Source of the DNA: an uncultured Clostridia bacterium
GTDB taxonomy: Bacteria; Bacillota; Clostridia; TANB77; CAG-508
Reading direction: 5' to 3'
Assembly: GCA_963559065.1 (NCBI GenBank)
Contig: CAUWIY010000006.1
Location: 5,748-69,747, forward strand
Length of the DNA: 64,000 nucleotides
The first letter of the stretch is position 1, and every line of letters starts with the position of its first letter. A program made the position numbers and the translations under genes. Under the pieces are notes generated by a model that ran no database searches, was not told where the DNA came from, and worked only from the letters and a program-made list of their open reading frames with translations. Below, one piece after another: positions 4,186 through 6,393 of the stretch.

Positions 4186-6393
4186 TTACCAACCATATTT
4201 TTGGCCCATCTCACCTATTAAATTTCCTCCTGTCATTGTTACAGTTCCATTTTCCCTATAAACTCCATAGTTTTTACCTTTTATAGTTCCACCCATTATT
4301 TCTAATCTACCTACATTTGTTACTGAAATACCATCTAATCCATTGCCTGTTATTACTCCATCATATACTCTTGTAGTGCCTACTCCTTCAAAACGAATTC
4401 CATACAAACCACCAGTTATACTTCCTCTATTTACAGTCAATGTCCCTGAACTTTTATGTAATATACCATGATTTTTTCCTACAACATTGGCAGTCCTCCC
4501 AGCTAAGACTACATTAGCATTATTCTGAATAAGTATTCCATCATACAATTGTGATGATACTGTAGCATTTTCTTCCATAGAAAATACTCCACCATTAGCT
4601 GCAACACCATAATAATATCCCATAACAGTTACTCTATTTGCTAGCGTCAAAGTTCCTTCATTACTAATTCCCGAATTAGATACTGCATTTATAGTTCCAT
4701 TTTCTATCCTTGAAGTTCCATAATTATAAATTGTATCTTGTCCATTTGAACTCAATGTATGTCCACCTAAATCTAAAACTATAATTTTATTATTCGGTAT
4801 TGTAACACTTTCAGCTACATCTCTTAGCAAATAAATTGTTGCATTGTTCGTATCATTAACTGCATTTGTAACAGTAGCATAATGTTTATTTAAAATTCTA
4901 GCAACTCCTGAACTTACACTTACTGTAGCTGTTCCTGTAACTGTGCTTCCATCATAATTTGTTATAACTACATTTATTGTTGCAACTCCATCAGATACTC
5001 CATATACCTCCCCTGTACTTGCATTAATTGTAGCAATACCTGGATTTAAGCTTGTAAATACTTTACTTTTTGGTGTTCCTGTATATGTTAATGTTGGAGT
5101 TGTAACATTTCCTATTAATATACTTGAATTTGACCAAGTTAATGATGTTACTTTGTTTACAATTCCACTAACAGCACTGCTTTTGGTATCAGATACATTT
5201 CCAGCCCTATCTTTTACCCATATATAATATGTTCCATTATTTGGCACATTGTAAGAAAAACTTGTTGCTGGTAGTTCTATCCAATTTACAGATGTGGCTG
5301 TTGGTCTCGTTGAATTTGTACTTGCATAATATCCTACTACACCACTTCCACCGGAATCACTTATATTTGAAACCATAATTGTTCCAACATTTGAAGTTGT
5401 ATTACTTCCAGATACTCCACCTATAATTGGCACAATTTTATCTATGTTTGTTACGCTTCCTGAGGCTACTCCCCCATAGTTTGTTCCATCCCATAGTCTT
5501 GCATATACTGTTCCATTTTCTGTAAAAGTTTGAGTTGTTGTATTTGTCCATGTTCTTCCATCTTTACTTGTTTGCAATGTGTATCCTGTTACTGTTGTTT
5601 TTGCTGTTACTATTACATTTCCATTTGTCCATTCTTTTGTACTATATTCAAATGTTGTGTTTCCTGTTGTTAAGTCTGCAACTTTTCCTGTTGTTCTATC
5701 TACAAGTAGTTCTGCTGTTCTTCCATTTTTTGCTACTGCTACTATTTTTATATTGTATTTTTTATTTTGTTCTAAGTTTAAGTATGTATATGTCTCATTT
5801 GTTGTTGTTTCTTTTAAAGTATATTTTTCCTCATCTTCTCCTTTTATGTAATATTCTATTTTTCCGCCTTCATTTCTTTCTGTTTTTACCTTTACTGTTA
5901 TTGTATTTGTTGTATTTGTTATACTTTCTAATGTTATTTTTGGTACTAATTCATTTATATTTCCTATGAATTTTGTACCACTCATTTCTACTTTGTATAT
6001 GTCTCCATCAACTATTACTTCAAAATATGTGTTTACTTTTTTTGTGTCTTCATTTATTGTTTCATTTAAAACTTCTCCTATTGCAACATCTTTCCCCATT
6101 TGTTTTAATTCATTTTGATTTTTTATTACATTTTCTCTTGTTGCTATTATTATCTCTTCTGATGTTCTATCTATGTCTTCTGATTGTTCTTCTATTAATT
6201 TTAAATCTAACCATCCCTTTATTTGGGCTCTTTTTGCTTCTAACTTTGCTTCTTTTGCTCTTTCAAATAGCCCATTTTCTCCTGTTAATGTTGCTATTGT
6301 TATTCCCGCTAAAATAAGCAAAACTATTATTGTTATTACTAATACTATTAATGTGATTGCTTTTTCATTATTCGCATTAATTCTAAAATTCAT
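4186..6393 (-). CDS. Large surface protein. It has the prepilin-like N-terminal anchor module, Ig-like (Big_2-like) and FN3-like segments, and a C-terminal parallel beta-helix (pectate-lyase-like) repeat.
   Basis: N-terminus KAITLIVLVITIIVLLILAGITIATLTGENGLFERAKEA is shared with the 37830 and 39263 genes. Gly/Asn-rich repeats (GTINAVSNSG..GGVFSMEENATV..NANVVLAG) are typical of a right-handed beta-helix. Confidence 0.6.
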   Translation of the reverse strand: MNFRINANNEKAITLIVLVITIIVLLILAGITIATLTGENGLFERAKEAKLEAKRAQIKGWLDLKLIEEQSEDIDRTSEEIIIATRENVIKNQNELKQMGKDVAIGEVLNETINEDTKKVNTYFEVIVDGDIYKVEMSGTKFIGNINELVPKITLESITNTTNTITVKVKTERNEGGKIEYYIKGEDEEKYTLKETTTNETYTYLNLEQNKKYNIKIVAVAKNGRTAELLVDRTTGKVADLTTGNTTFEYSTKEWTNGNVIVTAKTTVTGYTLQTSKDGRTWTNTTTQTFTENGTVYARLWDGTNYGGVASGSVTNIDKIVPIIGGVSGSNTTSNVGTIMVSNISDSGGSGVVGYYASTNSTRPTATSVNWIELPATSFSYNVPNNGTYYIWVKDRAGNVSDTKSSAVSGIVNKVTSLTWSNSSILIGNVTTPTLTYTGTPKSKVFTSLNPGIATINASTGEVYGVSDGVATINVVITNYDGSTVTGTATVSVSSGVARILNKHYATVTNAVNDTNNATIYLLRDVAESVTIPNNKIIVLDLGGHTLSSNGQDTIYNYGTSRIENGTINAVSNSGISNEGTLTLANRVTVMGYYYGVAANGGVFSMEENATVSSQLYDGILIQNNANVVLAGRTANVVGKNHGILHKSSGTLTVNRGSITGGLYGIRFEGVGTTRVYDGVITGNGLDGISVTNVGRLEIMGGTIKGKNYGVYRENGTVTMTGGNLIGEMGQKYGW

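Follow-up and report, generated by a model that had tools for sequence, protein, structure and literature searches.

What does the N-terminal segment shared by three large proteins of an uncultured Clostridia bacterium do? The question is raised by a stretch of 64,000 nucleotides (hereafter the window; G+C 27%) of contig CAUWIY010000006.1, assembly GCA_963559065.1, assigned to the TANB77 lineage, in which three minus-strand genes encode proteins beginning with a segment that resembles the N-terminus of type IV pilins and carries Ala or Val in place of Glu5. The original prediction, made from the sequence of the window, described these open reading frames (ORFs), their pilin-like start and the substitution at position +5, all of which are present at the coordinates listed below, and regarded the segment as an anchoring or secretion module of undefined mechanism. 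That description proved too vague, as the module is best described as a class III signal peptide. The three proteins are here read as modular type IV pilins, in which a shared class III signal is followed by a stalk of Ig and FN3 domains and a variable head, and a probability of roughly 0.65 is assigned to this reading. They would most likely represent a variant of type IV pilins, not a new category. The features on which the analysis is based are the following.

4186..6393, minus strand: gene 1, an ORF encoding a modular pilin-like protein of 735 amino acids (aa), with a pilin-like module, an Ig/FN3 stalk and a beta-solenoid head.
6358..6393, minus strand: predicted leader peptide of gene 1, MNFRINANNEKA, 12 aa, with Ala at -1, from the sequence.
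6283..6357, minus strand: hydrophobic alpha1N-like helix of gene 1, ITLIVLVITIIVLLILAGITIATLT, with Val at +5, from the model helix 12-37 and the register of the module profile with full-length type IV pilins.
6271..6282, minus strand: GENG break of gene 1 between the alpha1N-like and alpha1C-like helices, the non-helical residues 38-41 of the model.
5956..6393, minus strand: whole pilin-like module of gene 1, aa 1-146, from the secondary structure of the model and the free-standing 137-aa relatives.
4912..5940, minus strand: tandem beta-sandwich stalk of gene 1 (FN3, Ig and Big_2-like), aa 152-494, from the model, Foldseek and weak Pfam fn3 matches.
4213..4902, minus strand: C-terminal beta-solenoid head of gene 1, aa 498-727, from model strands with a predicted local distance difference test score (pLDDT) > 90, Foldseek, and the replacement of the head in homologues.
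37830..39233, minus strand: gene 2, 467 aa from a TTG start, with a 24-aa leader ending in KEKG, the module, Ig/FN3-like domains and a further C-terminal domain.
39057-39161, minus strand: module of gene 2, the same as in gene 1.
39263..40912, minus strand: gene 3, 549 aa when counted from the ATG at 40912, its probable start, within an ORF that extends to 41002.
40778-40882, minus strand: module of gene 3, again the same; the C-terminal domain differs from that of gene 2.

The three N-termini share the string [K/N]-[G/A]↓ITLI[A/V]LVITII[V/I]LLILAGITIATLTGENGLF[A/E]RAKEA, in which the arrow marks the predicted cleavage site. Protein 1, of which an identical copy exists in public assemblies (P0241), begins with MNFRINANNEKA↓ITLIVLVITIIVLLILAGITIATLTGENGLFERAKEA, having Ala at -1 and Val at +5; the TLIALV string previously ascribed to it belongs to proteins 2 and 3, which have Ala at +5, and Glu is found at this position in none of the three. 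The leaders had been estimated at about 20 aa, and their actual lengths are 12, 24 and probably 10 aa in proteins 1, 2 and 3, with A, G and G as the last residues. The TTG start of protein 2 has a GGAGAG ribosome-binding site upstream. In protein 3, the ATG at 40912 lies behind AGAGGGG, yields the leader MRENIFNKNG and coincides with the point at which the homologue P0025 begins, and is probably a better translation start than the ORF start at 41002. The hydrophobic run of the module, from ITLI to ATLT, comprises 25 uncharged residues. A degenerate back-translation of G-I-T-L-I-A-L-V-I-T identified exactly three sites in the window, corresponding to the three genes, against 0.01 expected from shuffled sequences, and a six-frame motif scan of the window detected no further copies of the module. 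Comparison of 40 module codons between the paralogues revealed 9-16 synonymous versus 1-6 non-synonymous differences, a predominance of synonymous changes which points to purifying selection at the protein level and argues against a recent DNA copy. Proteins 2 and 3 are 69% identical over their N-terminal 300 aa and differ in their heads.

The identification of the module depends primarily on its match to known pilins. When all chain sequences in the PDB were searched with a profile of the module, the only matches were full-length type IV pilins, namely Geobacter PilA-N (E = 0.0018), V. cholerae MshA, S. sanguinis PilE1 and a PilA. They align in register, with K-G↓F-T-L-I-E-L facing K-[GA]↓I-T-L-I-A-L, I-L-A-A facing I-L-A-G, and the cleavage site aligned. 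On the strength of this in-register match, the module is identified at the sequence level as a class III signal peptide followed by an alpha1N helix in which Glu5 has been replaced.

The wider family supports the same conclusion at the cleavage site. With the first 148 aa of protein 1 as the query, 1,734 proteins were retrieved, many of them only 90-250 aa long, and 122 of these gave the pattern [NEQ]-[KNR]-[GA]↓I-T-L-I-A-L-V-I-T-I-I-V-L-L-I-L-A-G-[VI]-[TS]-I-A-[TM]-L-T-G-E-N-G. In these sequences position -1 is occupied by Gly (97) or Ala (24), together 121/122, and the mean net charge of the leader is +3.5. Across the family samples, residue -1 is Gly or Ala in > 99% of members and residue -2 is mostly Lys, which fits the rule for prepilin peptidase sites, as prepilin leaders are hydrophilic and end with Gly or Ala (PMC10191384). 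Residues G26, N28 and G29 are close to invariant. The sequence TGENGLF(A/E)RAKEA, which had been termed invariant, is so within the window, and across the family it relaxes to T-G-[EDQ]-N-G-[ILV]-[LFI]-x-[RK]-A. Ala occupies position +5 in 113/122, 107/112 and 137/138 members of three samples, the last drawn from the best 139 new proteins of a profile search with 21,584 matches. Free-standing family members of 137 aa align with 95% of residues 1-148 of protein 1 (41-42% identity), so that the N-terminus of this protein corresponds to a complete small pilin-like unit.

This profile search, run against 1.84 billion representatives of clusters at 50% identity, is the source of the 21,584 proteins (E <= 1e-10), and a scan of species-representative genomes confirmed at least 420 family loci. 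All 80 retrieved loci derive from uncultured organisms labelled 'Clostridia bacterium' or 'Clostridium sp.' of animal and human gut, including Clostridium sp. CAG:440, and the median G+C of the retrieved loci is 27.6%. The ectodomain following the helix reaches 881 aa in the sampled loci. Sources naming the sampled members use only 'hypothetical protein', and no paper in the searchable full-text literature contains the motif strings. One member, P0384 (706 aa), has two copies of the module, one N-terminal and one at residues 388-446, and is probably the product of two adjacent family genes joined by a gene-calling or frameshift error.

Genomic context links the module to a pilus. The context set comprised 87 sequence sources (86 loci and the window; 1.27 Mb) with 112 family genes, whose neighbours were all clustered. 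Most family genes are solitary among housekeeping genes. In 10 of the 86 related loci (L022, L024, L025, L027, L030, L057, L061, L062, L069 and L080, with L032 partial), short family genes are located inside one conserved pilus operon, the sole recurrent system to emerge from the neighbour clustering. The operon starts with a 540-aa PilM/N-like gene, two genes for small membrane proteins and one to three tandem family genes (130-170 aa), followed by a 270-aa PilD-like gene, two pilin-like genes (minor pilins), and the genes for PilB (545 aa), PilT (365 aa) and PilC (448 aa). PilB matches Pfam T2SSE at 2e-102 together with MshEN, and its best NCBIfam score is to the type IV-A PilB model; PilT matches T2SSE and passes the NCBIfam PilT cut-off (324 vs 319 bits); PilC matches T2SSF at 7e-26. 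Queries with PilB and PilT returned only PilB/PilT homologues, and no other secretion-ATPase relative, such as a Tad-type one, was present in the 1.27 Mb.

The pilins of this operon share the first 18 mature residues with window proteins 2 and 3, 22-28 of 34 residues matching overall, and one of them (L022:9995-10459) passes the Pfam N_methyl model (22.3 vs 21.2 bits). When aligned, they consist of an invariant N-terminus of about 35 residues and a hypervariable remainder, which is the pattern of major pilins. Of the options raised by the original prediction, that of a prepilin peptidase substrate or pseudopilin-like protein is thus the best supported, given that short paralogues with the same N-terminus stand beside a PilD-like gene in an operon with PilB, PilT and PilC. 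The suggestion that a missing Glu5 marks the three proteins as special, in the manner of a GspK-like tip, is not supported, as the presumed major pilins of the lineage also have Ala at +5.

Glu5 is 'often, but not always' present in pilins (PMC10191384), and is 'almost invariably' present in bacteria and often absent in archaea (PMC4471445). The latter source also reports it to be dispensable for cleavage. A canonical G-F-T-L-I-E N-terminus was found neither in the window nor in the 1.27 Mb of context. The major pilins of the operon would form filaments with Ala at +5, and in that case their assembly cannot use the canonical salt bridge between Glu5 and the N-terminal amine. The minor pilin encoded directly after the PilD-like gene (cluster 13; L022:11401-11847, and also in L024, L025, L027, L057, L061, L062, L069 and L080) has either Asp or Glu at +5 in each of its nine copies (G↓FTGID, G↓ITNID etc.), and the other minor pilin, like the major pilins, has neither. 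Cluster 13 inverts the usual pattern, where only the tip cap is without Glu5 (PMC10191384).

The search for a prepilin peptidase, one of the partners envisaged for the module, had an ambiguous outcome: the related genomes possess a PilD-like gene, and the peptidase half of its product is recognised by neither Pfam nor NCBIfam. The protein matches Pfam A24_N_bact (PF06750 / IPR010627) at E = 1e-30, with C40, C43, C65 and C68 invariant, and its best 120 homologues carry PF06750 alone; a canonical control peptidase from a Pseudomonas plasmid scores 76.9 bits with PF01478. Two acidic residues, D126 (G-I-D-K-E) and D176 (L-D-T-I-T-L), are each found in 128/129 sequences, and alignment with the control A24 peptidase by hhalign (98.8% probability) places D126 on the first catalytic Asp (LID). 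In a structural model with a pLDDT of 76.5, helices 103-127 and 159-178 carry the two Asp at their ends. Provided that the zinc-ribbon loop (residues 25-73) is located in the cytoplasm, as it is in canonical PilD, these ends would face the cytoplasm, and the cytoplasmic face of the membrane is the expected position of the prepilin peptidase active site (PMC10191384). The PilD-like profile retrieved spurious zinc-finger matches only from PDB sequences, and Foldseek with the model gave nothing below E = 0.68 in the PDB. We infer that the protein is probably a divergent and active peptidase, for which the strictly conserved small residue at -1 of the substrates provides indirect support. The gene at L022:10596-11411 and the homologues P0121-P0240 outline a large 'prepilin peptidase' clade with the four-Cys domain and no detectable Peptidase_A24.

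The remainder of the proteins is consistent with a modular design. The AlphaFold2 model of protein 1, based on 65 homologues and with a mean pLDDT of 86.6, features within the module a helix at 12-37, a break at 38-41, helices at 42-72, 78-91 and 93-99, and a four-stranded sheet at 103-145; judged by the order of the predicted secondary structure, aa 1-146 fit the helix-plus-sheet layout of pilins. Beta-sandwich domains at 152-494 and a beta-solenoid at 498-727 follow. Foldseek searches with the full model returned FN3/Ig tandems and the extender regions of bacterial adhesins, and a pectin-lyase-fold protein was among the best viral matches. The FN3, Ig and beta-helix domains previously proposed are thereby upheld for protein 1 by model and Foldseek, with Pfam detecting FN3 in the window proteins at sub-threshold scores only (18.7-21.6 bits vs a cut-off of 25). 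No backing was obtained for the 'lectin-like' or 'beta-helix' C-termini attributed to proteins 2 and 3, whose C-terminal domains gave nothing meaningful in PDB sequence searches.

Homologues of protein 1 have the first ~410 aa in common and differ in their C-terminal heads, which include CHB_HEX_C, Big_2, GBS_Bsp-like, DUF4214 and Flg_new. A fourth paralogue of 705 aa, with the leader ...KKESG↓ITLIALV, was observed on the same contig ~3 kb past the 3' end of the window (L092:12802-14919, minus strand). Its first ~410 aa closely resemble those of protein 1 and its C-terminal head is another one, which by sequence comparison is a clear instance of heads being exchanged on a shared pilin-plus-stalk unit. 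At least four dispersed family genes are thus found within ~75 kb. The neighbours of gene 1, encoding a 159-aa membrane protein and a 479-aa acidic protein, do not occur beside family members elsewhere, so no conserved partner is apparent, and a promoter and terminator scan around the gene performed no better than shuffles.

On the assumption that the three proteins represent modular type IV pilins, a plausible route can be outlined. They would be inserted into the membrane through Sec and the signal recognition particle with the leader in the cytoplasm, and the PilD-like enzyme of the lineage would then cut after Gly or Ala at -1, leaving Ile at +1. The PilB/PilC/PilM-N machinery, with PilT for retraction, would pull the helix out of the membrane, and the large protein would be built into, or onto the tip of, filaments composed of short major pilins with the same helix. 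The resulting pili would show exchangeable adhesive or glycan-binding heads. In this scheme, cleavage, N-methylation, incorporation into a filament and an adhesive role are all presumed, as is the presence of the operon in the genome from which the window derives.

Several observations weigh against the modular pilin reading. No Pfam or NCBIfam cut-off was reached by any of the three window genes, the best relevant match being to N_methyl (PF07963), which scored 16.3 bits and 11.9 bits in two of the proteins, below the cut-off of 21.2, and did not match the third. Foldseek with the full model of protein 1 was dominated by Ig/FN3 and is thus silent on the fold of the pilin module, and beyond approximately residue 45 the module heads of the window proteins have no significant similarity to the operon pilins. 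Genes for pilus machinery are absent from the 64-kb window, from ~7 kb upstream and from ~10 kb downstream; these contig extensions contain only housekeeping genes and the fourth family paralogue, and the association with the machinery holds for short paralogues in 10 related genomes, not for the three window genes. The membrane half of the PilD-like protein gave no PF01478 (IPR000045) match at E <= 10 in 4 sequences, the protein had no NCBIfam match and no GxGD motif, and the hhalign alignment stops short of the canonical second Asp and GxGD. The Asp pair itself has exceptions, L061 having Glu at the first position and L062 being without the second. Finally, Glu5 mutants of classical pilins form no homopolymers (PMC4471445), which leaves filaments of Ala5 pilins hypothetical.

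In an alternative, close to the signal anchor raised in the original prediction, the module is a pilin-derived N-terminal membrane anchor (N-in, C-out), cleaved or not, and the proteins are surface-stalked adhesins or enzymes that never enter a filament, resembling the archaeal sugar-binding proteins whose signal peptides are of class III. This is the main competing explanation, although we consider it unlikely. Every pilin is anchored in the membrane before assembly, the ectodomains are very large (to 881 aa), there are many dispersed copies per genome, the genes are located among housekeeping genes and remote from the machinery, and doubt attaches to the peptidase half of the PilD-like protein. 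A plain anchor, however, needs neither 18-25 near-invariant residues nor Gly/Ala at -1 across ~21,600 clusters; the helix is the same as that of the operon pilins, indicating a shared partner, and even the bindosome requires a pilus-like assembly system.

Quite improbable is the possibility that the operon builds a pseudopilus of the type II secretion or competence kind, with the family members as pseudopilins or cargo and no long pili. The GspG model (TIGR01710) matches the window proteins weakly, at 15.4 and 13.6 bits vs a cut-off of 88.85, and for Clostridium perfringens a secretion route that depends on type IV pili has been put forward (bioRxiv 10.1101/2024.11.04.621531). Against this, the operon includes PilM/N-like genes and a PilT above cut-off, PilT being lost in Com pili and type II secretion (PMC10191384), its PilB scores best with the type IV-A model, and a pilin helix is not normal on cargo proteins.

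Least probable of all is an ordinary Sec signal peptide (signal peptidase I) or sortase-type signal with a convergent likeness to pilins. In its favour, the N-terminus has the basic and then hydrophobic composition of any signal peptide, and the TGEN following the helix is similar to ...PSTGEN... in the sorting signal of a giant surface protein encoded nearby. Against it, the hydrophobic run of 24-25 residues contains, by inspection, no cleavage site of the A-x-A type, the pilin match is in register including T2-L3-I4 and I15-L16-A17, a PilD-like gene is linked to the family, the motif varies in the operon pilins (LSGQNG, VAGENG) unlike the T-G site of a sortase, and no C-terminal LPXTG-type sorting signal is present in any of the three proteins. 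TGENG was also considered as a sortase site in its own right and rejected, since T and E vary in the operon pilins and the motif is placed on the side of the membrane helix that is wrong for such a site.

The modular type IV pilin reading can be set against systems already described. A modular pilin is defined as an N-terminal pilin module joined to at least one module that is not specific to pilus biology (PMC8179133). The closest design is that of S. sanguinis PilB (pilin module and vWA) and PilC (pilin module and lectin) (PMC8179133, PMC9934059), with which the window proteins also share a monoderm host, machinery of the PilB/PilT/PilC/PilD type and an expected adhesive role. S. sanguinis PilB carries Glu5 and its gene lies in the pil locus (PMC8179133), whereas the window genes have Ala or Val at +5 and are dispersed; unlike the S. 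sanguinis modular pilins, moreover, many paralogues per genome and a multi-domain stalk are found here. With classical type IVa pilins and pseudopilins (PF07963), the family has in common a leader ending in Gly or Ala, T2-L3-I4, L6 and I15-L16-A17 in register, a hydrophobic helix of ~25 residues, a hypervariable head and, for the operon copies, a location beside pilD. It differs from them in the absence of Glu5 from the presumed major pilin, in Ile instead of Phe or Met at +1, and in the fixed G-x-N-G break that follows residue 25.

Tip or initiator minor pilins (GspK, CofB, TcpB) are likewise large and equipped with added domains, and GspK-type caps are without Glu5 (PMC8179133, PMC10191384). 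In those systems the cap alone lacks this residue, whereas here almost all pilins do, and cluster 13 retains Asp or Glu. Archaeal class III proteins (pilins, archaellins, the Sulfolobus bindosome) are similar in that Glu5 is often absent and the signals also occur on functional proteins outside filaments; the family nevertheless has a sequence of the bacterial T-L-I type, T4a-like machinery with PilT, and a bacterial A24 N-terminal domain on the PilD-like protein.

TANB77 has been linked to the response to immunotherapy through a Tad-type pilus cluster (PMC11680825), which is comparable to the present system in being a pilus system with 'pilin-like' proteins in uncultured low-GC gut Clostridia, and the genomes found here fit the description of TANB77 in that study as uncultured, gut-associated, of distinct GC and inconsistently filed by NCBI, in both cases under Clostridium sp. 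or Clostridia bacterium. GTDB places 'Clostridium sp. CAG' genomes of this kind in TANB77. The published cluster consists of CpaB/TadZ/CpaE/TadA/TadBC, with no PilB or PilD mentioned in the paper or entered in its gene table, and no conserved N-terminal motif noted in that table. A direct link between the two was rejected, as the loci contain no Tad ATPase. The hosts are abundant uncultured gut Clostridia, and a second pilus with a big repertoire of adhesins may bear on their interaction with the host.

A wider picture, which is put forward tentatively and which we doubt somewhat more than we believe, is that gut Clostridia possess retractile type IVa-like pili with native Ala5 major pilins, processed by a peptidase that has diverged without GxGD, and use the common helix as a 'plug' for many dispersed modular pilins with exchangeable heads. 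If true, the assembly of bacterial type IV filaments would not need the salt bridge between Glu5 and the N-terminus. What appears new here is a set of pilins devoid of Glu5 that includes the presumed major pilins, a PilD homologue with an unrecognisable catalytic half, and a very large family not captured by current domain libraries. A natural system of this kind would offer a ready-made test of the role of Glu5, the more so in combination with a prepilin peptidase devoid of the motif. As none of the three window genes reaches a domain-library cut-off and the named members of the sample are called only 'hypothetical protein', the family is likely to be missed by censuses of surface proteins and adhesins in gut metagenomes. 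The published census of modular pilins began from the N-terminal IPR012902 domain (PMC8179133), and a census keyed to the N-methyl signature would miss the family if the cut-off of that signature behaves like that of the Pfam model.

Other genes of the window complete the description of the locus. Two giant surface proteins of 1384 and 1637 aa are encoded on the minus strand at 44241-48395 and 48412-53325, with Sec-type signal peptides and SpaA, SdrD_B and DUF11 domains. Their C-termini, ...IPSTGENRNY-hydrophobic-KKK and ...SIKTGEIVA-hydrophobic-RKR, look like clostridial (S/P)PxTG-type sortase signals, in which case the organism would employ C-terminal sortase anchoring alongside N-terminal pilin-type modules. 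Divergently upstream of paralogue 3, a small plus-strand ORF at 40997-41239, the product of which probably begins with MNKLKIPENHSGISKTLRLPENIVDDVQRLADLKNLSF and has no Pfam match, could encode a small DNA-binding regulator. A 507-aa membrane-anchored protein (33538-35061, minus strand) carries WG beta-propeller-like repeats (PF14903, E = 2.5e-30), and its homologues are found near family genes in L012, L044, L040 and L009, a proximity which may be a coincidence. Directly downstream of paralogue 2, an 834-aa protein (35124-37628, minus strand) contains a central adenosine-deaminase domain (E = 2e-17) between long unannotated flanks and is conserved in L072 with 69% identity.

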